64,000 nucleotides of DNA from Candidatus Hodarchaeota archaeon (GTDB lineage Archaea; Asgardarchaeota; Lokiarchaeia; Sigyniarchaeales; SOKP01): NCBI GenBank assembly GCA_048886685.1, contig JBHLKM010000001.1, positions 320,001 to 384,000 of the forward strand. Direction: 5' to 3'. The position numbers and the translations under genes are program-made. The notes beneath the pieces were generated by a model, which saw only the letters and a program-made list of their open reading frames with translations, was not told where the DNA came from and made no database searches. Of the stretch, positions 9,433 through 35,109 are shown in pieces. Numbering within the stretch: the first letter of the stretch is position 1; the number at the start of each line of letters is the position of its first letter.

Positions 9433-9825
9433 TTAAGTTATAAGATTATTAAGAATTCTTTTTGCGCTTGCTGCTATTGTCTTATTAATGTTTTTAGTGA
9501 GATTTTCTATTATTGGTTCTATTGGTTTTATTGCTCCTATGTTAGTTTCTGAGAGTTCTTCAAAGGAAGAGAGGAGGGAAATAATAGAATCGTTAGTAGA
9601 ATCCTCGAAAGTTTCTTTTATTCTAGGAATAGCTATATTGTTTAATATATCATCAAGATAATTGGAAATTTCCTTCTCTACATTTGGATCTCGATAACTT
9701 TTTAGTTTGCTTCGCATGTCTTCCACAAATTTCAAGGGTAATTCAATTGGCCAATCCAGTATTTTTTCCTTATCGATTAATTGGACAATGCCCCCATCTT
9801 TTTTATGAAAAATTTTTATATCCAA
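9433..9825 (-). CDS. Hypothetical helical protein coupled to top6A; start may be ATA 9819
   Basis: 130-aa ORF overlapping the top6A stop; HEAT-like C-terminal helices. Confidence 0.7.
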   Translation of the reverse strand: MDIKIFHKKDGGIVQLIDKEKILDWPIELPLKFVEDMRSKLKSYRDPNVEKEISNYLDDILNNIAIPRIKETFEDSTNDSIISLLSSFEELSETNIGAIKPIEPIIENLTKNINKTIAASAKRILNNLIT

Positions 9826-11003
9826 TCACCTGTAGTTAATTTTTCTGGTAAATAATCATCTGTTAAAAATTTGAAACCATGAGATGCAAAGGCTTGGATT
9901 TCTGCTTTTTCTTTCTTTTTCAGAGCTAATTTTAGATCTAATTCCCAAGCTTTATTAATTTTTACGAAATCCTCTTGTAAAAGATCTTTTGTTCGTTTTT
10001 CATCTTGTTTATTCATTTTTATCCTAGCTTCTGTCGGAATTTTATATTTATCTAAATCTCGAGTCAAGACTCCAAGAAGTTTAATATTTGGAGTAGCAAG
10101 GAAAGGTGATTCATAACTCAATCTTTTGGAACCTCTTAAATAAACAGAGTGAATGTAATGTCCATAAGGATCACTATCAACTAAAGTAAAAGTTGGTAAA
10201 TTGAGCTCTTTATTTAACCTTTTCAAAAACATACGAGTAGCTACATTTCCAACTCCTTGAGCTGTTATCAAAATACAAGGATATTTTCGCCAAAATCGTG
10301 CCTCGGAAAGTCGCATCATCGCGGCATTTTTTTCAATTACTAAAATAAATTCAGCATCCGATTCAATTATTTCTATTTGATCTAAGAATGGAGATATTGT
10401 CCAACCGCCACTACCTTGGCCTTCTAGATCAATAATATCTGTTTGATCTCTTATTCTTAATCTACCAACACATGAACCTCTTGGAGCTGCGACAATATGA
10501 GTAGAATTTCTAGTAGTGTACAACATTGTGGCAACATCTTCAATACTTTTATCACTGTTTTTTTGCTCCTTGAATAGATTTACATCAGTATAAAAGACTT
10601 CTCTTTTTGTAGCATGAAGATTTTCGTTTAGAAGTTCTGTTACAACTTCAAGAATTCTCATTAAGCGCGTTATATCTGCAACACTAGTCAGGGTATGAAA
10701 TTGTTTCTCCATAATTTGTTTTCCAAGTAATAATAGATCATTTTCTTCATCCCATCTAATATTTGAACTTGATCTTGAAGGTAGCTGAATCGAAGGTCTT
10801 CCTGTCGTATAAATTTTAGTTAGCACATCATCTACTAATTTATACAACCTTGATAGTACTTCTTTTCTATTTAAGTCATCGATCTTTACAGCATCCACTG
10901 GAAATTCGACTTCCTTTTTCACTTGCCCTTTATCTATGTAATCATTGAATAAATCCTTAGCTGCTTTTAAATCAAAATTTTTCATTTTTTGTTTTTGAGA
11001 CAT
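9816..11003 (-). CDS. top6A: DNA topoisomerase VI subunit A
   Basis: ATKREVFY catalytic Tyr motif, ILVIEK, DSDPYG toprim motif, KAEIQA. Confidence 0.97.
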   Translation of the reverse strand: MSQKQKMKNFDLKAAKDLFNDYIDKGQVKKEVEFPVDAVKIDDLNRKEVLSRLYKLVDDVLTKIYTTGRPSIQLPSRSSSNIRWDEENDLLLLGKQIMEKQFHTLTSVADITRLMRILEVVTELLNENLHATKREVFYTDVNLFKEQKNSDKSIEDVATMLYTTRNSTHIVAAPRGSCVGRLRIRDQTDIIDLEGQGSGGWTISPFLDQIEIIESDAEFILVIEKNAAMMRLSEARFWRKYPCILITAQGVGNVATRMFLKRLNKELNLPTFTLVDSDPYGHYIHSVYLRGSKRLSYESPFLATPNIKLLGVLTRDLDKYKIPTEARIKMNKQDEKRTKDLLQEDFVKINKAWELDLKLALKKKEKAEIQAFASHGFKFLTDDYLPEKLTTGDWI

Positions 11004-11018
11004 ATATTTCGCCTTGTT

Positions 11019-14000
11019 TTATTTTAATTTCCATTGTTTCCTACCCATTTTTATATCAACTAAAACCTCTCCCTTCCGCTCCAATTCTTTGAGTTTAAGT
11101 TGAAGATACCTCGCATCCATCATGTCTTTTATTTTTAACTTAAAAATAAGATGTTTTATAGTTTGCCATTCGTATGTTAACACATTTAGTATTCTATCAG
11201 TGGTTATAATTGGTAGCGTAGTTTGAGTTGATTTTGGTTTTGAAGGTGTCGGTCGGGGTTTGATGCTTACAGGTTTTTGCTTTACTGCAACTTTGACTAG
11301 TTTAGGTTTTGCTGTAATGATTTCTGATACTTTAGGTTTAGGTACTTCTGGTTTATGCGAAATTTTTTCAACTGTAAAAGATTCTAATATTTTTTCAATT
11401 ATCTCATTTTTCCTTGCTTTAGAATGTATTCTAATTTCTTTTTGTTCGCAATATTCCTTTAGTTCTTTGATTGTCCAATTATTTAAAGTCTTTTTAGAAA
11501 TTGTTTCTTTCTCGACAATAGGTTTCTTTATAGGGGATACTTCTTTTATTACAATAGGTTCTTCCTTCACTTCTTTTTCTACTTCTACTTTTTCAATCTC
11601 AGGCTTTTCAGGTCCCTCTATCTCAAGTTTTTCAGGCTCCTTTATCTCGGGTTTTTCAAGCATCAATTCAGGTTCAATCATAGGGACTGGTTTTTTTCCA
11701 ATTGCGCCCTTCATCAAATTTATGATTTCTTCAAGTTTGAGTTCAGATTTATATTTACTCTCTCCTTTGGATGCGATATTATAAACACTTTCTGCAAAAA
11801 TGGGGATATATTTTTCAATCAAACTAGCTCTTTTTTCAGTTTGACGAAGACTTGCTTTTCTATTAAGATATATCCTTAATCTTCGCCCTATTGATTCAAG
11901 GCAGAATTTTATTTCTTTGATTAAATCCTCATCATCAGCTAATGCATTTTTCGATTGAGATTTGAACATAAGATGTACAAATGGTCCAGAAACATTCACC
12001 AGTAATTTTATTGGTCCTTTTGGTAAGCCATTATCATAAGTTTCAAGTTTATAATTTTTCCAATTTACTGATTGAACTGCTTTCGTTATAGCGCAATCTG
12101 CACTGTCCCTTAATTTAGGAGTTCTATTCACAAATCTGGATAATACATCTCTAGAACGTTTTGGAACTTCAATATTTCTTGAATGTGCCATAACAGCCTC
12201 TACCACATAGGCCAATCCTTTTCCGCTTGTGGGTGCTCTAGTTTCTGCTGCTACAAAATCATCATCTTTTCCATAACTTTCAATAAAATATTCAAATACT
12301 TGTTGATAGCTATCTATTGAATCCTCTTCAGTAAAGACTATAAGATCATTAATTGATTGCTGAATTTGGGAGGATTCTAATTTTTCATCGACTATATCAA
12401 TAGTTCCTATTATCTCAGAACTCAAATTGACAATTTCTTCTGAATCTACTGAAATATCATTAATTATTTCAGTACTAATTTTAGGATCTTCATCTAATAA
12501 AGTTTTTTTCTTATCTTCAATTATTATATCCCCCGTTTGACTTAATATTTCTATTGGTTCATCAAAATTATCAATACCCTGAGAAATTTTTAATCCTATT
12601 TCCTTTATCAATGTATTTTCTAATATTGATTCACCTACAGGAATCGCTGTGTCTGTGGGAGGCGCCATGTATTTCATTGATTTAAAAGCAAGAAAAAGAG
12701 AGTTAAATTGTTCCTTTGTTAACTCAATTGGTTTTGCTTTAGAGATTTGAACTTTCTGAACTAAATCTTCAAATTCATTTCTATTTTTAATCTTTTTAAG
12801 TTCCAATAAACCACTTTTATTTAAGGCTAATAGCCCGTTTAATTCAAGTTTAATCTTTTCCTTTTCTTCACTAATTTCATCTATATTTTTCAACAATTTT
12901 TTAATTTCTTTTTCATAATTTTTTCGTTCTTTAATTGTCTCAACCTTTTCAATGTATTTATTTAGGGTTTTTATTTCTTTATTAATTTTTTCATGGTTTT
13001 TCTCATTTTTTGTATAGGTGGAGATTAAATCCCAATATTTCTCTTTAAGCTCCTCAGAAGTTATTTGGTATATTATTAATTTGTCCCTCATTTTGGTAGA
13101 ACGACCGTAAACTCTTTTTTCCATTACAAGATAATAAACTTGTTCAGTTTTTTTCTTAATTTTACTTACAAACCCATCCTTAAGGATTAGAAGATTAAAT
13201 TTATCCTGGAGATCCTTTTCAGCCATATCAATAATTTCCTTAGCTGTTTTTGAACTAATTCGTACAAAATTATCTTTTAGGAATGCTGAAAGGGATTTAT
13301 TTTCTGATTTAGCAACTAAATCTTGGAGATCACCAATATTAACTGATGATGGATGAGGTTTTGCATATTTTGGTTCTTTTGGAAAAGCAGAAGCTAGACG
13401 GCGATAAATTTTTTCTTTACCATCGGGATCGATGTAGATTACTGTGATATGTGGGTTCATAAAGGCGGTTTCTTCAATATATTTTTCAACATACCCTTTA
13501 ACATATTTAACATTTAAGTAATTCAACTTTACGTAAGTCCCATGTAAGAATGGACTGTCAATATCAGTTGGATGTATTAGATATTTCTTTTCGTTCTTAG
13601 ATGTGGTAAAAAATTCATTAACTGTAGCATAAACATTTTCAGAGGACTTAGAGACTGCAACAATGGGTCTACCAGTAGTATTTTGAGCATCGCTAAAGGC
13701 GCTTGGGGCTCCAAATCCTTGGCTACCTCTTGTTTGTTTTAATTCCATTGATTTTGATGAGGCAAGATACCTTCCAAATTTTCTCAAATCGATTTTTGAC
13801 ATCCCGGTTCCATTATCAAAAATCTCAAATGTATAACTCATTACATTTTTCTGACTTATCTCTGAGGTTAAGAGTGATGGCGCTTCATATTCTCTTATAC
13901 GTACTATAACAATAGGTTCTACATCAATAATATTTTCAACAGGTTTAATGATTTCTTGCATATCATCGATGATTCTTTGTACTTCTTCTTCTATCTCCAA

Positions 14001-14411
14001 CTCATTTTCATTACTTATTTCCCCAGATTCCTCTTCCTTTATTTCTGGTTCTATTATAATAGGTTCTTCTGAATCCTGTGTCTCAATACCTAATTCTTGC
14101 ATTAATGTGTGTTTAGCTTCATTGTCTAAATGTTGCGTCTTTTTTTCCTCCTTTGCTGCTTCAACAATAGAAAATTTTTCTAAAAATAGTTCTTGATCCA
14201 AAGAAAACTTAATTTTTGAATCTGGTTTTTCTAATTCTCTCCATTGGAAACTTTCGATGGCATCAAGCGCATTATCTATAAATTCTGCACAATATTGAAC
14301 GTGCTTCCAATACCCAAACTCAAAACCAACTAATTGGGTACGCTTTCGCATATATTCTGCTATTGTACCTTGCTTTATTTTGCCTTCTTCTTTTGTTGTA
14401 ATTTTTAACAC
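11019..14411 (-). CDS. top6B: DNA topoisomerase VI subunit B, expanded (1130 aa), with C-terminal SAP/HeH-like and winged-helix domains
   Basis: GHKL motifs EFIDNALDA, DNGTG, TRGSQGFG; also KPHP, RFVNRTP, WKNYKL, FKSQSK. Adjacent to top6A. Confidence 0.95.
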   Translation of the reverse strand: MLKITTKEEGKIKQGTIAEYMRKRTQLVGFEFGYWKHVQYCAEFIDNALDAIESFQWRELEKPDSKIKFSLDQELFLEKFSIVEAAKEEKKTQHLDNEAKHTLMQELGIETQDSEEPIIIEPEIKEEESGEISNENELEIEEEVQRIIDDMQEIIKPVENIIDVEPIVIVRIREYEAPSLLTSEISQKNVMSYTFEIFDNGTGMSKIDLRKFGRYLASSKSMELKQTRGSQGFGAPSAFSDAQNTTGRPIVAVSKSSENVYATVNEFFTTSKNEKKYLIHPTDIDSPFLHGTYVKLNYLNVKYVKGYVEKYIEETAFMNPHITVIYIDPDGKEKIYRRLASAFPKEPKYAKPHPSSVNIGDLQDLVAKSENKSLSAFLKDNFVRISSKTAKEIIDMAEKDLQDKFNLLILKDGFVSKIKKKTEQVYYLVMEKRVYGRSTKMRDKLIIYQITSEELKEKYWDLISTYTKNEKNHEKINKEIKTLNKYIEKVETIKERKNYEKEIKKLLKNIDEISEEKEKIKLELNGLLALNKSGLLELKKIKNRNEFEDLVQKVQISKAKPIELTKEQFNSLFLAFKSMKYMAPPTDTAIPVGESILENTLIKEIGLKISQGIDNFDEPIEILSQTGDIIIEDKKKTLLDEDPKISTEIINDISVDSEEIVNLSSEIIGTIDIVDEKLESSQIQQSINDLIVFTEEDSIDSYQQVFEYFIESYGKDDDFVAAETRAPTSGKGLAYVVEAVMAHSRNIEVPKRSRDVLSRFVNRTPKLRDSADCAITKAVQSVNWKNYKLETYDNGLPKGPIKLLVNVSGPFVHLMFKSQSKNALADDEDLIKEIKFCLESIGRRLRIYLNRKASLRQTEKRASLIEKYIPIFAESVYNIASKGESKYKSELKLEEIINLMKGAIGKKPVPMIEPELMLEKPEIKEPEKLEIEGPEKPEIEKVEVEKEVKEEPIVIKEVSPIKKPIVEKETISKKTLNNWTIKELKEYCEQKEIRIHSKARKNEIIEKILESFTVEKISHKPEVPKPKVSEIITAKPKLVKVAVKQKPVSIKPRPTPSKPKSTQTTLPIITTDRILNVLTYEWQTIKHLIFKLKIKDMMDARYLQLKLKELERKGEVLVDIKMGRKQWKLK

Positions 14412-28756: not shown

Positions 28757-29608
28757 TCAATCTTCTTGTTCTATATTTTCTTGCTCTTTAGTTTCCTCAA
28801 TTTGTTCATTTTTTGATTGTTCTTCAATTGGTTGTTCTTCAATTCCTAACTGAGTAACCATTGCTAGTTTTAGCTGATGTTTATCTTTTGGTAATCCGAA
28901 CATATCAGCATATTTATCTGTTGTTGTTAATTCATGAGTTCTCCCTTTTTTTACAGCATCTATAAAACCATTATCGATAAGATAATTTATGTGTTCATAG
29001 GCTCCTGTTCCTCTCAATTTAATAACAGTTGATTTTAAAATGGGTTGCTTTAAAGCAATTACCGTTAACGTTCGAAGATAACGCTCTGCTATTGCACCAC
29101 CTTTAGCAAATTTAGATACTTTTTCTGTATATTCTGGTTTAATTTGCATTTGGTATCTGTCTCCTATTTGCGCAATTACTAATGCTGTTGAACGGTCGAG
29201 ATAGTCAAATGCAACTTCATTGATTAGTTCTTCTACTTCTTTTTTAGAAAATTCTAATTTATTAGATAATTCCTCTATAGTTAAAGGTCTACCAGCAGCA
29301 TATAAAGAGGCTTCGATTAAATTTCTATGGAATTCTCTCATTTTTTCTTCGAATGATTGCTCTTCAGTAATATCTTCTTCTAATGTTTCAATTTCAATTC
29401 TTTCTTCTAAATTTTCCATAGTTCGTTCTATAATTTCAGATTTTTCTTCTTGAGTTTCATCTGTGATAAATTCCTCGGATTCTACCTCATTTTCATTAAT
29501 CTTGTTCGATTCAATTTCTTCATTTGGGAGTTTTTCAGAGTCTTCTACTATTTCCTCTATCAAATCGTCCTCTTGTGCTTCTTTGAGTTCTTTATCAAAA
29601 CTATTCAT
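28757..29608 (-). CDS. scpB: ScpB (kite subunit) with long acidic N-terminal extension
   Basis: IEASLYAAGRPL, LRTLTVIALKQPI, IKLRG, TTDKYADMFGL; downstream of smc-scpA. Confidence 0.93.
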   Translation of the reverse strand: MNSFDKELKEAQEDDLIEEIVEDSEKLPNEEIESNKINENEVESEEFITDETQEEKSEIIERTMENLEERIEIETLEEDITEEQSFEEKMREFHRNLIEASLYAAGRPLTIEELSNKLEFSKKEVEELINEVAFDYLDRSTALVIAQIGDRYQMQIKPEYTEKVSKFAKGGAIAERYLRTLTVIALKQPILKSTVIKLRGTGAYEHINYLIDNGFIDAVKKGRTHELTTTDKYADMFGLPKDKHQLKLAMVTQLGIEEQPIEEQSKNEQIEETKEQENIEQED

Positions 29609-29638: not shown

Positions 29639-30637
29639 TTATTTAATATCTACTGAAATGTCTCTGAAGTCTTCATCTTGAGCCAAAGTTAATTTATTTC
29701 CTGTGGAAAGAAACATTAGCGCTAAAAACATTCTTACGAGAGCAAATTTTCTGCCTATACTAGTCTCTTCTTCATCTTTTATTATATTTGTTAAATCATA
29801 GAAACTAGTATCCTTGTTGTTTAAATTTATTGTACCCTTAATCCTATTATACCATGATTCGTGTAATTCTTCAACGGTTTGTTCTCTCCCACTAATATGT
29901 TTTAATAATTCTTTTGGTAATTGGGCTTTAGATCTCATTTGGATTTTTTGTTGTTTTAATTCTTCCCGTCTCATTCTCCTTCTTCTTAGTTTTTCTTTAT
30001 TTTGCATTACTTCTATAATTGCTGATCGCATTGCATCAAATAACTCCTCTTTTGTTGCTATTTGCATCTTGGGTTGTATTGGTTGTGGTAATGCTTTTGG
30101 AATTGATCTTGAATGCCTTTGCCGAAATTTTTCTAGTTCTTCTTTTTTTTGAATTTGCTCTTCTTCCCTTATAATACTTGAGATTTTATAATGATGCAAA
30201 TTTGCTGATGTTTTCAGTGCAATACCAGAAATCTTATAATTTATTAATTCTTCATGAAGCATCTTATCAAAAAATTCATCAACTAAACTAGCTAAACCAT
30301 AAAAAGCTATTTCCGATTCTTTAGCTAATTCTGTGTCTAATAGGCTTGAAAATGGCGGTTTTTGCCAAAATTTCAAGTTTATTTTTTCTTTTCTTAATAA
30401 CGCGAGATCTTCATCCTCATCAAAACCAGCTACTAATTCTTCTTCCAATTCTTCGACTTCTTGGGATCGATCAATGAATTCAGGATGTGAAACTATTTTT
30501 TGTAATAATTCAATAATATCATTCTTTTTTGATTTAGACGGGATCTTTATATTATTTTTATTAGCAAACTCTCTTAATTGTTTCACAGTCCATTCATTAA
30601 AATTATATCCCTCACTGGAGTTCGGTTCTTTAGAAAT
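29639..30637 (-). CDS. scpA: ScpA kleisin with N-terminal SAP/HeH-like domain; probable ATT start at 30637
   Basis: INYKISGIAL..A.L...K N-kleisin helix; C-terminal VRMFLALMFL...LAQDEDFRDI winged helix; lies between smc and scpB. The frame is open upstream of the GTG at 30586 as far as TGA 30646. Confidence 0.88.
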   Translation of the reverse strand: MSKEPNSSEGYNFNEWTVKQLREFANKNNIKIPSKSKKNDIIELLQKIVSHPEFIDRSQEVEELEEELVAGFDEDEDLALLRKEKINLKFWQKPPFSSLLDTELAKESEIAFYGLASLVDEFFDKMLHEELINYKISGIALKTSANLHHYKISSIIREEEQIQKKEELEKFRQRHSRSIPKALPQPIQPKMQIATKEELFDAMRSAIIEVMQNKEKLRRRRMRREELKQQKIQMRSKAQLPKELLKHISGREQTVEELHESWYNRIKGTINLNNKDTSFYDLTNIIKDEEETSIGRKFALVRMFLALMFLSTGNKLTLAQDEDFRDISVDIK

Positions 30638-30654
30638 TTTATTTCACCTTTTCT

Positions 30655-33600
30655 TTAATTTTCAGTAACTGTTGGTTCAATATCTTCAAGTTCTAAAAGT
30701 CTCTTCGCCTCTTCCTCTAAATCTACGCTAAAGATATCCGTTATACCACTTTGCTGCATAGAAACGCCATAAATTCTGTCTGAATTTACGATATTCTCCT
30801 CTCTATGGCTAATGACCAAGAATTGCGCTTGACTGGAAAATTCCTTTATAACCATCGAAGTTCTATGTACATTGGGACCATCCAAGGCCGCATCGATCTC
30901 GTCCATAATATAGAACGGCGCGGGATAGAACTCCTGCACGGCAAAGATGAACGAGAGCGCCACAAGAGTTTTTTCACCCCCACTTAAAATTTCGAGGCTT
31001 GAAATTTTTTTCCCGCGCGGTCGAGCTTCGATGCTGATACCACCTTCGAAGGGCTTATCGGGACGGTCTAAAATCATTTTAGCAGAACCACCAGGAGAAA
31101 GTTTTTGAAATATCCGAGAGAATTCTCGATTAATTTCATGATAAGCTTTCATGAATGTACGTGTTTTTTCTAATTCAATTTTATCTATGGCATCGAGGAT
31201 TGATTTTCTTTCCCTTTGGATGGTTTGTCTTCGCATATCAATCTCATCAAATCTTTCCTTTACAGTATCATATTGTTCAATTGCTTTCAAATTAACTGGT
31301 TCAAGAGTTTTTTTATTATTAATTACTTCTACAATTTCAGATTGCAATTCTGGTTCCGAAAGATCCTCTGTAACAGGAGGTAGTGAGCCATATTCTTTAG
31401 AACGTTGAAATAAAGTTTCTATTTGATCCGCACAAATGATCTTTTTGGATTCAAAACTGTTCTTCTTTGAATTTTCCATTGATTGATCTGATTTTAAATC
31501 TGTAATAGTCTTTTGGTATTGCTTTTGTTTCTTCCAAGATTCATCTTTTTCTTGAGTATAATTATCGATCTCCTCCTGTTTTGCATCCTTTTTCCCATTT
31601 TCAGTTTCTAATTCACTTTTAAAATTTTCTAGTTCTTTCATTACAGATTCTATTTGATTTTCAGTATCAATGATTTCTTGATTTAATTCAAGAATTTTTT
31701 GTTCTCTTTCTTTATTCTTATTTAACTCATTTAATCTTTTTTGATGTTTTTGTTGATCCTTATTAAATTTGTTTAATTTCTTTTGGGCGGCTTTTTGTGC
31801 TTCTACTTCTTTAGTTTTCTCACCCCTTAAGGAATCTATTACACTTTGTTTTTGGTCAACATTTACTTGGATCTTATCAACTTCAGAGTTAAGTTCATCT
31901 ACGTTTTTTAGACAAACTTCAACATCATTTTTTGCTTCAATATTCTCTTTTTTAATGTCTTCAATTGAGTTAATGATTCTCATTACGTTTTCAAGTGCGC
32001 GTAGGCGGTCCATGATGTCTTCTAATTCTAGATTTTTTCCTTCGATCTGTTTCTGAATGTTTTCACTTATTTCCCAGAATTTTTCTTTCTGTGAAGTAAG
32101 ATCGTTAATTTCATTTTGAAATGAAGTTTGTTCTTCATGTAATTTTTCAATACTTTCTTCTGTATTAATAATTAAATTTTTCTTTTCTTCGATTGAATTG
32201 TTTATTGTTTGAATATTTTCCTCAATTTCTGATAAATTTTCGAATAAATTCTGAATTCCATGTAATTCCTGCAGATTTTCTCTTAATTTTTCTAATTCTG
32301 CTTGTTCTTTTTCAATGTCCTCTTGAATTTTAGAGATATCATCCCAGTAAGTATCTTTTAGCTCCTCTAATTTCTTTATTTCTTCATCTAATTCTTTAAT
32401 TTCTTTTTCCCTTTCGTTAATTAATTCGTTTCTTTCATTTATTTCTTCTTCAGCTTTTTTAATTCTATCAAGTATCTCTTGATTTCTTTTATTTATTTCT
32501 TCGAGTCTTCGATTAAAAGCAGAAAGATTTTCAGAATCGTGTCTTTTTTGAAGGTTGGCCTCTGTTAATCTTTTCTCAGTGAGATTAAAATCATCCATCT
32601 GAGAGTTTATGTTTTCCGAAATTTCATCAAGTTGTTTGTATAATTCTTGACTCTTTGACATGGTTAGCTTTCTTAAGGATAGGTAAACGTTCTCAAGAAT
32701 TTCCATAAGATCTTGAACAAAATTATCGAAAGTAGTAGTTGAAGCTTGAACTTCTACGTCAGCAGACTCCTTCACTCTCTCAATTAATTGCCCTATTGTG
32801 TCATCAGCATTATCAGTAAATAATTTTAAAGTTTCCATAATAGATTTTAGCATTTCTGTCATTTCTGTAGCTTGTTCTGTAGTATCCCCTATTTCCTCAA
32901 CAGTTCTCATTATATCTACAAGATCTAAAACGAATTTCTTAAAATCTTCAGCTGAAGTCTCAATTGCCTCTGCATTTGATTGCTGTATATTACTTTTTAT
33001 GGATTCAACGGAGATATTAATATTTTGAGTGAGCATGTTTAAAATCTGCAGAATCCCAGTAATATCTGTTGTATTTTTTTCATATTCAGCTTCAGAAGAT
33101 TCAATTTTTTTTAATATACTCTCTTTTTCTTTGGTAAGATCTTCTAAACGTCTTTGAATGTTCATATTTTTATTATTAAACTTTTCGAGATCTTTTTCAA
33201 TATCTAAAATGCTTTTATTCAAAGTAGATACTTGTAAATCTAAATTATTTTTCTCTCGCTCTAATTTAGTTGATTCTTTTGTAAATATTTTCAACTCAGT
33301 ATTAATATTTTCTATCTTTCCCTTGTTGTCATTGATTTCGGAGTCTAAAGAATATTTTTTCATCCGCAGCAATTCTAAATTTTGCTCATTTTTTTTGTAA
33401 ATTGAATTTTGTTCTCTTAATTGTCCTCTTAAATCATTTATTGTTTTGGTTCTATTCTCATTTTCTTTTAATAAATCTTTAACAGCATCCTCTGTATCTT
33501 TACCTTTACTCAATTCCTGAATTCTTTTCTCAATAGAAGTTTTTTTATCATTTAGATTATGAATATTATTGTTATTCATATTAATCTCAGTATTTAATGA

Positions 33601-35109
33601 AGATAAATTAGATTGTAGATTTAATAGTTTTGAATTTAGCTGGTTTTTCTCCTCTTGAATTGAAGTGATTTTATTCTCGAGAGCTTTTTGGTTTTGATTT
33701 TCTTCTACAATTTTAGCTTTTAGGTTATCTATCTGCTTTCTAATTTCGTTTTCTTCCTTTTTTGTATTTTTAATAGCTTCATCAATACTTTCTGCATCTT
33801 TTTTTAGTTTTGCTAACTCAGTTTCTAATTTTATTTTTTTATCTTCATTCTTTTTAATATTATCTTTAAGGACTTTAATTTGAGCTTTATTAGAAGATAT
33901 ATTTTGTTGTATTTTGGAGATTTCTGCATTAAACTGTGATTTTTCTTCCTCATTATCTCTAATTTTTGTATCTATTTCAGCCTGAGTTTGTTGTCTTTTT
34001 TCTATTTCTTTTTTGGCCTGTTCAATGATATTTTCACATTCAGATATATCATTTAAAGCGCTTTCTATCAATGAATCGATGCTTTGATCTTCTTCAAGAA
34101 TCATCTGTAGATTTTCTAAATTTTTAATTTCCTGGGTGAGTTTTTCAATTGATTTTCTGGCGAGGTTTGAAGTGGTTTGGCTGGAAGAGATTTTTGTTTT
34201 TAATTGTGTAATATTCTCATTAATTTCCTCTCTTTCTTTCTCTTTTTCATTTATATTTTTTTGAATGTTATCCATTACGAGTGACTCTTGTTTAAGTAAA
34301 GCCTCTTGTCTACTAATTTTTTCTTTTAATTCTTCAATAATTTTTAAAGAATTTTCTATTTTCTTTTCTAGATCATCTTCTTCTTCTCTTAACTTCGAAA
34401 TTTTTAGTGCTATCAATTGTGAATTTAAAAAATTAATTTTTTCATCTAATTCCTTCCACGCTAGAGCATCATTTTTCTCTTTTTCAACTTTTTTTAGTTG
34501 GGAGGAAACTTCTTTAAAAATTGCTTCAAATTGTCCTAAATCTCTCTCTGCTTTTTCCAATTCCTTTAGTGTTGCATCTTTCATTTCATCATACTTTTGA
34601 AGTCCGATTAGATCCTCAATGAAAAATCTACGTTCTTCTGTATTCATATGTGTTAATTCAACTATCTTACCTTGCAGAACAAACTGATTGCTACCATCAG
34701 GATCAATATTTGCTGCGGCTAAAGCGTTAAGAATTTGCTGACGCGTGGTGTTTTTTCCATTCATTTTGTATCCACCCCCACCACCTCTCTTTATTGTACG
34801 GGTGATTTCAAATGTGTCAGTCCCTCCAGGAAATACATTATCAGAATTATCAAAATACATTGTTACTGATGCTCTTTGTGACGGGTTTTTCCCTCTAGAA
34901 CCTGCAAAAATTAGATCTTCTAAACTCTTAGCCCTCATTGTTTTTTTACTTAACCTCCCTAAGGCGAAGCAAAGAGCATCTATGATATTAGATTTACCTG
35001 CACCATTAGGCCCTACTATGCATGTAAAACCACTTGAAAGTTTGATTGTTACTGTGCGATCTCCAAATGACTTAAAACCAGTCATCGAAATTTTTTTAAT
35101 GTAAGTCAT
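30655..35109 (-). CDS. smc: Smc ATPase (1484 aa) with atypical central domain
   Basis: GFKSF, GPNGAGKSN, VLQG (Q-loop), PVNLKA, LSGGEK, MDEIDAALD, VISH; long coiled coils. Confidence 0.96.
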   Translation of the reverse strand: MTYIKKISMTGFKSFGDRTVTIKLSSGFTCIVGPNGAGKSNIIDALCFALGRLSKKTMRAKSLEDLIFAGSRGKNPSQRASVTMYFDNSDNVFPGGTDTFEITRTIKRGGGGGYKMNGKNTTRQQILNALAAANIDPDGSNQFVLQGKIVELTHMNTEERRFFIEDLIGLQKYDEMKDATLKELEKAERDLGQFEAIFKEVSSQLKKVEKEKNDALAWKELDEKINFLNSQLIALKISKLREEEDDLEKKIENSLKIIEELKEKISRQEALLKQESLVMDNIQKNINEKEKEREEINENITQLKTKISSSQTTSNLARKSIEKLTQEIKNLENLQMILEEDQSIDSLIESALNDISECENIIEQAKKEIEKRQQTQAEIDTKIRDNEEEKSQFNAEISKIQQNISSNKAQIKVLKDNIKKNEDKKIKLETELAKLKKDAESIDEAIKNTKKEENEIRKQIDNLKAKIVEENQNQKALENKITSIQEEKNQLNSKLLNLQSNLSSLNTEINMNNNNIHNLNDKKTSIEKRIQELSKGKDTEDAVKDLLKENENRTKTINDLRGQLREQNSIYKKNEQNLELLRMKKYSLDSEINDNKGKIENINTELKIFTKESTKLEREKNNLDLQVSTLNKSILDIEKDLEKFNNKNMNIQRRLEDLTKEKESILKKIESSEAEYEKNTTDITGILQILNMLTQNINISVESIKSNIQQSNAEAIETSAEDFKKFVLDLVDIMRTVEEIGDTTEQATEMTEMLKSIMETLKLFTDNADDTIGQLIERVKESADVEVQASTTTFDNFVQDLMEILENVYLSLRKLTMSKSQELYKQLDEISENINSQMDDFNLTEKRLTEANLQKRHDSENLSAFNRRLEEINKRNQEILDRIKKAEEEINERNELINEREKEIKELDEEIKKLEELKDTYWDDISKIQEDIEKEQAELEKLRENLQELHGIQNLFENLSEIEENIQTINNSIEEKKNLIINTEESIEKLHEEQTSFQNEINDLTSQKEKFWEISENIQKQIEGKNLELEDIMDRLRALENVMRIINSIEDIKKENIEAKNDVEVCLKNVDELNSEVDKIQVNVDQKQSVIDSLRGEKTKEVEAQKAAQKKLNKFNKDQQKHQKRLNELNKNKEREQKILELNQEIIDTENQIESVMKELENFKSELETENGKKDAKQEEIDNYTQEKDESWKKQKQYQKTITDLKSDQSMENSKKNSFESKKIICADQIETLFQRSKEYGSLPPVTEDLSEPELQSEIVEVINNKKTLEPVNLKAIEQYDTVKERFDEIDMRRQTIQRERKSILDAIDKIELEKTRTFMKAYHEINREFSRIFQKLSPGGSAKMILDRPDKPFEGGISIEARPRGKKISSLEILSGGEKTLVALSFIFAVQEFYPAPFYIMDEIDAALDGPNVHRTSMVIKEFSSQAQFLVISHREENIVNSDRIYGVSMQQSGITDIFSVDLEEEAKRLLELEDIEPTVTEN

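Follow-up and report, generated by a model that had tools for sequence, protein, structure and literature searches.

The window, by which we mean the whole 64,000-nt stretch of DNA that was analysed, carries on its minus strand the genes smc, scpA and scpB and, apart from these, top6B with top6A directly 3′ of it (Table 1). The scpA product scored 18.6 bits against Pfam SMC_ScpA, which is below the cut-off of 24.6 bits, and its assignment as the kleisin ScpA rests on the gene order smc-scpA-scpB; its orthologues are named kleisin family by JGI. The neighbouring ScpB has a very acidic, Glu-rich N-terminal extension of approximately 95 residues (window 29324–29608, minus strand), and its C-terminal tail is acidic as well. 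Topoisomerase VI subunit B was recognized by its GHKL ATPase and transducer domains together with the adjacent top6A. At 1130 aa, this Top6B is about twice the usual length and has large insertions upstream of the tail.

Table 1. Features of the smc-scpA-scpB and top6 loci and further carriers of the module. Positions are those of the window unless a contig or locus is named.
Feature	Position	Strand	Details
top6A	9816..11003	(-)	Directly 3′ of top6B; TOP6A-Spo11_Toprim 194.8 bits, TP6A_N 65.1 bits
top6B	11019..14411	(-)	1130 aa; Topo-VIb_trans 98.3 bits, HATPase_c_3 21.9 bits
Terminal winged helix-turn-helix of Top6B	11022..11237	(-)	Last 72 aa, structured from approximately residue 13
HeH module of Top6B C-terminal tail	11370..11489	(-)	aa 975–1014 of the 1130-aa ORF
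scpB	28757..29608	(-)	Pfam SMC_ScpB 116.5 bits
scpA (kleisin) CDS	29639..30637	(-)	332 aa with table-11 starts; between smc and scpB
Acidic low-complexity linker, HeH module to kleisin N-terminal domain of ScpA	30380..30484	(-)	From the translation; net charge of the ScpA N-terminal region −6
HeH module of ScpA	30485..30604	(-)	40 aa; residues 12–51 counted from the ATT start
Proposed ATT start of scpA	30635..30637	(-)	Aligned codon in same-genus orthologues
Shine-Dalgarno-like GGTGA	30644..30648	(-)	6 nt 5′ of the ATT; contains the in-frame stop (TGA) that delimits the ORF
smc	30655..35109	(-)	Pfam SMC_N 127 bits; stop codon lies 17 nt 5′ of the ATT that starts scpA
1DGelX-type gelsolin, third carrier	G000 contig 2, 161808–162983 = L001:3809–4966	(-)	386 aa
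GIFT-like HeH protein, genus g14	L088:1483–2772	(-)	
GIFT-like HeH protein, genus g14	L091:349–1623	(+)	
GIFT-like HeH protein, genus g14	L093		

A module shared by ScpA and Top6B

A preliminary description of this DNA had claimed that one and the same module is appended to ScpA and Top6B, and this claim was borne out, positions included. The F..L stretch of ScpA occupies 30503–30601 on the minus strand and its Top6B counterpart lies at approximately 11385–11486; by BLASTP, the two modules aligned without gaps over 32 residues, 15 of them identical and 24 positive (E = 2e-9). The charged, low-complexity linkers that had been described at both modules are also seen in both translations, in ScpA as an acidic stretch on the C-terminal side of the module, and in Top6B as a Glu/Lys/Pro-rich linker before it and a Pro/Lys-rich one after it. 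An HMM built from the two copies, which the preliminary description had proposed as a check, was run genome-wide against the 28,521 stop-to-stop frames of the 4.4-Mb genome, where it retrieved both copies and a single further significant carrier, a gelsolin-type protein (E = 2e-6). The recovery of so few frames indicates that the resemblance between the ScpA and Top6B modules is not due to chance.

Within the genus, the module was kept in all genomes with a full-length ScpA match, with 75–85% identity among the seven same-genus ScpA rows of our module alignment (alignment A1, 31 modules), and it was conserved in all same-genus Top6B sequences examined. One same-genus Top6B tail (G020:C112:2294–3479) is broken by three TAA codons and may represent a pseudogene or an assembly error.

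Domain class and predicted fold

The ScpA module matched Pfam Ish1 at 27.1 bits (cut-off 26.6), followed by Rho_N at 21.2 bits and HeH at 21.0 bits. When Rho_N was searched against the six-frame translation of the genome, it scored 25.5 bits on ScpA and 28.5 bits on Top6B, both above the cut-off of 24.9, while hmmscan of the whole Top6B gave 22.6 bits for Rho_N, below the cut-off, such that Top6B taken alone is borderline. Pfam LEM (PF03020) gave no match at E ≤ 1 on either protein, and we therefore ruled out a LEM domain proper. Comparison of the module profile with PDB sequences yielded marginal matches only, the best full-length one being 2out (FluMu gp35/HI1506; E = 0.007); matches to R2D2 and tubulin-like entries were dismissed because they covered only one helix.

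An AF2 model of the module, computed with alignment A1 as input, consisted of a helix at residues 7–16, an extended segment at 17–26 and a second helix at 27–39, with a mean pLDDT of 85.5. The best Foldseek matches of this model were SAP-type domains, namely the C-terminal domains of CDNF/MANF, the Tho1 SAP domain (1h1j), 1zrj, 4uzw, 2do1 and the Rho N-terminus. From 1h1j onward, these superposed with query TM-scores of 0.75–0.84 and an rmsd of 1.0–1.6 Å, at Foldseek E-values of 0.5–6, a 40-residue query being too short for significance; the best SAP superpositions, among them the S/MAR-DNA-binding Tho1 SAP domain, reached TM 0.80–0.84 with an rmsd of 1.4–1.6. In the alignment, L10, I19 and K27 were invariant and T6 and I30 almost so. 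On the strength of the Pfam matches and the modelled fold, we conclude that these 40 residues form a genuine helix-extension-helix domain belonging to the SAP/HeH/Rho_N/Ish1 clan (hereafter the HeH module). The earlier assignment to this type thus holds, and of the domains that had been named for comparison, Rho_N and SAP are the ones that the module resembles and LEM is not.

The Top6B tail ends in a further domain, a winged helix-turn-helix preceded by more than 100 low-complexity residues. Its AF2 model (pLDDT 87) had the order H-H-H-E-E, and Foldseek matched it to NolR, HlyU, SmtB, Z-alpha and Sso10a with probabilities of 0.99–1.00 and E-values of 0.009–0.1. All families of the order that were examined have this terminal domain on Top6B.

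The start codon of scpA

The extent of the ScpA module depends on where translation begins. We found no in-frame ATG, GTG or TTG in scpA upstream of the module. A GTG at 30586 lies inside it, and a start there would cost the module its six N-terminal residues, among them the conserved Trp-Thr; the preliminary description was right that the ScpA copy is truncated if this codon is used. This genome alone has GTG here; across the 15 same-genus orthologues compared, the Val is otherwise encoded by GTA, GTT or GTC. At the position of the proposed ATT start, the 15 same-genus orthologues have ATT (eight), ATA (five), ATC (one) or ATG (one), always followed by TCN (Ser), and 14 of the 15 loci show the arrangement GGTGA-N6-ATH, with GGTAG at the remaining one. 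Comparable spacing is found for the strong Shine-Dalgarno sequence of Pyrococcus abyssi aEF1A (PMC6237735). The scpA of genus g12, which belongs to the same family, begins at the corresponding position with a canonical ATG-TCN and continues into the same module, and two public ScpA orthologues (P0115 and P0118) have an ATG start and two tandem modules.

Over the seven codons upstream of the GTG, variation by codon position amounted to 4/2/5 variable columns, and so small a number of sites cannot demonstrate purifying selection. That this stretch is translated is instead argued from its conserved amino acids, from the ATG found in g12 and from the spacing of the Shine-Dalgarno-like element. Synthesis of ScpA by read-through from smc was rejected, as smc is in a different frame and the TGA at 30644–30646 bounds the scpA frame. 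From these comparisons, the most likely start of scpA is the ATT at 30637–30635, giving a protein of 332 aa, and we regard a near-cognate start as secure for genus g1 only, with support from the ATG of g12. Genomes of g14 have ATT, GTA or GTT at the corresponding codon; L080 and L085 read GTA or GTT there, and no canonical start lies upstream of the conserved HeH module.

Public gene calls for ScpA range from 269 to 347 aa, and many of them (269–292 aa) are too short to contain the module, probably on account of the ATT/ATA/ATC gene start. With ScpA called short in this way, annotation pipelines and domain censuses undercount the module. A near-cognate start may also serve to tune the Smc:ScpA ratio.

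Further carriers

The third carrier in this genome is a gelsolin-type protein whose N-terminal domain scored 21.0 bits against Pfam Gelsolin, exactly the cut-off, and matched the Thor ProGel structure 7c2f_B with an E-value of 1.5e-5; by this N-terminal gelsolin domain it has the 1DGelX architecture of Asgard gelsolins. Its C-terminus is the same module (HeH, 27.8 bits). The gelsolin-HeH protein is kept in at least 12 same-genus genomes, and some genomes of the genus encode a paralogue, not found in this genome, whose module is approximately 50% identical to that of ScpA. Some gelsolin-type carriers are already labelled by NCBI as “HeH/LEM domain-containing” or “Rho termination factor N-terminal domain-containing.”

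In genus g14, the gelsolin ends in two tandem HeH modules, and a C-terminal HeH module is also found on proteins of 420–430 aa with an IFT52-GIFT/ABC_transp_aux-like N-terminal domain. Weaker copies occur on NOV_C proteins of the same genus, and a Rho_N-plus-SWIM-like protein in the genome studied here contains a more distant relative of the module.

Distribution of the module and of the two fusions

The module profile was positive in 121 of the 129 genomes of family f1, with one to eight copies each. In the sister families of the order, module matches were seen in 1 of 14, 0 of 1 and 1 of 4 genomes, all of them weak, and in a sample of the phylum outside family f1, 1 of 97 genomes had a match at E ≤ 1e-5. 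By these counts, the module subfamily is restricted to a single Loki-type family. Neither the two-sequence seed HMM nor a 42-module HMM found the module in ScpA or Top6B of the sister families at E < 0.05, which indicates that it is truly missing there rather than merely diverged beyond the reach of BLAST, in keeping with the earlier statement that canonical ScpA and Top6B lack it.

Within the order, ScpA and Top6B both carry the module in genera g1, g14 and g16, and neither carries it in g13, where ScpA begins with ATG and a CPYCG...HKC zinc knuckle. We had first read g13 as a sign that the two fusions co-vary, a notion that was overturned by g12, in which the module is present on ScpA and absent from Top6B.

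What stands at the ScpA N-terminus in relatives is varied. Several sister genera (g2, g8, g9 and g10) have Lys-rich tails with a net charge of +20 to +32, while the N-termini are near neutral or acidic in g5, g11, f3 and f4, for which a general rule of a basic tail replaced by HeH fails. A CPYCG-x11-HKC zinc knuckle followed by Lys/Pro-rich sequence occupies the HeH position in L101–L104 (g13) and L016 (f2, g10). It is suggestive only, but the ScpA module may be positionally equivalent to other nucleic-acid-binding appendages in relatives.

The Top6B linkers of sister families are rich in K/S/T/P. Where family f1 has the HeH module, the Top6B tails of family f2 (L029–L034) show a “PK(S/P)V..(V/I)DD(I/F)I”-like motif, for example “PKSVxKVDDII,” which may be what is left of helix 2 or may have no relation to it.

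Relationships among modules and viral relatives

We compared 73 modules over 40 columns in a tree of low resolution, in which support values were not inspected. The tree contained one clade per carrier; the ScpA modules adjoined those of the gelsolin paralogue, then Top6B, then GIFT, and the main gelsolin clade adjoined modules from prophages. This arrangement looks like independent gain of the module by several carriers.

A scan of viral contigs with the module profile returned 41 loci, and the 11 that were read out encode small proteins of 88–136 aa with the module at the C-terminus. Most of the 11 lie on low-GC contigs of the size of a prophage, and these contigs we take to be bacterial prophages. 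Prophage modules were up to 62–67% identical to the module profile, whose first row is ScpA, over approximately 30 residues, and the ScpA and Top6B copies, at 47% identity to each other, fall below these closest prophage matches. Given prophage matches of up to 67%, an identity of 47% is ordinary for the subfamily and by itself implies no special link between ScpA and Top6B. The module may have been taken from a virus; its route into Asgard archaea is only a guess.

Discussion

Our preferred reading, which we consider reasonably probable, is that the module is a mobile tether, probably binding dsDNA, that was added independently to several unrelated proteins of one Loki-type family. One HeH subfamily would have multiplied in a single Loki-type (Promethearchaeota) family through separate grafts onto flexible ends, namely the N-terminus of ScpA, the C-terminal tail of Top6B, the C-terminus of the 1DGelX gelsolin (in one or two copies) and, in one genus, a GIFT-domain protein. 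Each module would then be a small, sequence-unspecific and perhaps AT-preferring dsDNA anchor on a flexible charged leash and would locally increase the affinity of its carrier for DNA. In Smc-ScpAB, the N-domain of the kleisin binds the Smc neck. The ScpA module lies approximately 35 acidic residues ahead of this N-domain, and a position just before the neck-binding domain would place it beside the Smc neck and head, close to the DNA clamped on the heads. In Top6B, the module lies between the transducer and the terminal winged helix and may work with the latter as a two-part DNA-binding tail, and the gelsolin module would join an actin regulator to DNA. What the analysis supports directly is the identity of the domain, its fold, its distribution, the independent gains and the ATT start; that DNA is the ligand, and what this means for the carriers, is inferred.

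Helix-extension-helix domains and their relatives may bind protein instead, as LEM domains do with BAF and the SAP-like domain of MANF does with BiP. We consider it unlikely that the module is an adaptor of this kind, docking its carriers on one lineage-specific partner, for instance a protein of the nucleoid or a scaffold of the membrane or cytoskeleton. Such a role would suit the CDNF/MANF domains at the top of the Foldseek results, which are bound to BiP in those entries, the Trp/Met-Thr-Val-Lys-x-Leu face that is conserved across otherwise unrelated carriers, and the modules of Top6B and gelsolin, whose net charge is low (only about +1 each). However, no candidate partner was found, and DNA-binding SAP/HeH domains typically have basic residues where K24, R/K26 and K27 are conserved here, in the extension and at the beginning of helix 2. 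The Lys-rich tails and the zinc knuckle at the same position of ScpA in relatives likewise point to nucleic acid.

The preliminary description had gone further and read the module as a targeting tag shared by condensin and Topo VI. A common ligand of the ScpA and Top6B modules is likely, and would most simply be DNA, but a tag dedicated to bringing both enzymes to the same DNA feature or chromatin partner, thereby coupling compaction with decatenation, seems to us distinctly unlikely. The joint presence of the module in g1, g14 and g16 and its joint absence in g13 would fit a dedicated tag, as would the proximity of the two genes, which lie approximately 19 kb apart in the window and approximately 20–28 kb apart on one contig in several relatives. 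Set against this are genus g12, the same subfamily on gelsolin and GIFT-like proteins, the grouping of ScpA modules with those of the gelsolin paralogue rather than those of Top6B, and the prophage modules, which are closer to the profile than the ScpA and Top6B copies are to each other.

A bolder extension, which we regard as a long shot, is that the HeH modules form a common nucleoid-docking system for the SMC complex, Topo VI and the gelsolin-type actin regulator, joined in one genus by the GIFT-domain protein. If this were true, the Asgard actin cytoskeleton would be physically linked to DNA, actin-assisted chromosome positioning would be possible, and the modules would be prokaryotic precursors of the HeH/LEM domains that tether chromatin at the nuclear envelope in eukaryotes. 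Lastly, Rho_N is among the best Pfam matches and similar modules abound in prophage proteins, yet we consider it highly improbable that the ligand of the module is RNA or single-stranded nucleic acid, or that domain shuffling from a mobile element left it as a near-neutral passenger without a role in its carriers, given that the HeH sub-domain of Rho is not its main RNA-binding element and that the within-genus conservation of the ScpA module and its presence in nearly the whole family argue for selection.

HeH, SAP and LEM domains are familiar above all as the parts by which nuclear proteins of eukaryotes are tethered to chromatin. Here a prokaryotic relative has spread, within a single family among the archaea closest to eukaryotes, onto a kleisin, the main decatenase and an actin regulator. 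Should the independently grafted modules bind DNA, as our preferred reading has it, they would offer a simple handle on how the Smc complex and Topo VI are held on DNA, hint at a link between actin and DNA, and suggest that the accretion of domains on chromosomal proteins predates eukaryogenesis. Most noteworthy are the fusion of gelsolin to HeH and the conservation of a near-cognate start codon in scpA.

Comparison with known systems

Our literature search found no paper joining Asgard archaea with “helix-extension-helix.” As far as their available text goes, papers on Asgard archaea, “SAP domain” and topoisomerase VI do not describe these module architectures, and the HeH module is not mentioned in the accessible portions of two surveys of Topo VI.

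The module is like the SAP, HeH, LEM-like, Rho_N and Ish1 domains (PF02037, PF12949, PF07498 and PF10281; Tho1 SAP, 1h1j and 4uzw) in its size of approximately 35–40 residues, its two helices with an extended segment, its hydrophobic pattern L..(Y/F)....I....K..(I/L)I and its basic residues at the start of helix 2; in that clan, too, flexible linkers attach the domain to larger chromosomal proteins. Unlike the known SAP/HeH carriers, the proteins described here are a prokaryotic kleisin, a Top6B and a gelsolin, and DNA binding by their modules is a prediction. The closest sequence relatives outside the family are the prophage HeH proteins (FluMu gp35/HI1506, 2out, and proteins of approximately 90–135 aa from low-GC prophages), which similarly bear the module at the C-terminus on a flexible tail but are small, stand-alone proteins of bacterial viruses rather than fusions to cellular enzymes.

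The placement of an extra domain after the transducer of Top6B recalls the C-terminal DNA-binding appendages of type II topoisomerases. The Top6B of Methanosarcina mazei has an Ig-like C-terminal domain (CTD) and the CTD of plant Top6B binds RHL1/BIN4 (PMC9665070; PMC11302465), and Brinkmeier et al. list a CTD as present in Asgard TopoVIB. The tail described here differs from an Ig-like CTD in consisting of a long low-complexity linker, an HeH module (in f1 only) and a terminal winged helix that is found order-wide. The gelsolin of the Loki-type family resembles the Thorarchaeal 1DGelX gelsolin (PMC7444086) in that it begins with one gelsolin domain, with a further region behind it. Akil et al. 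give domain X of 1DGelX as a predicted coiled coil and do not mention HeH in the text consulted (PMC7444086), whereas in the Loki-type family one or two HeH modules form the end of the protein. What we describe is a known domain type in new architectures, confined to one family.
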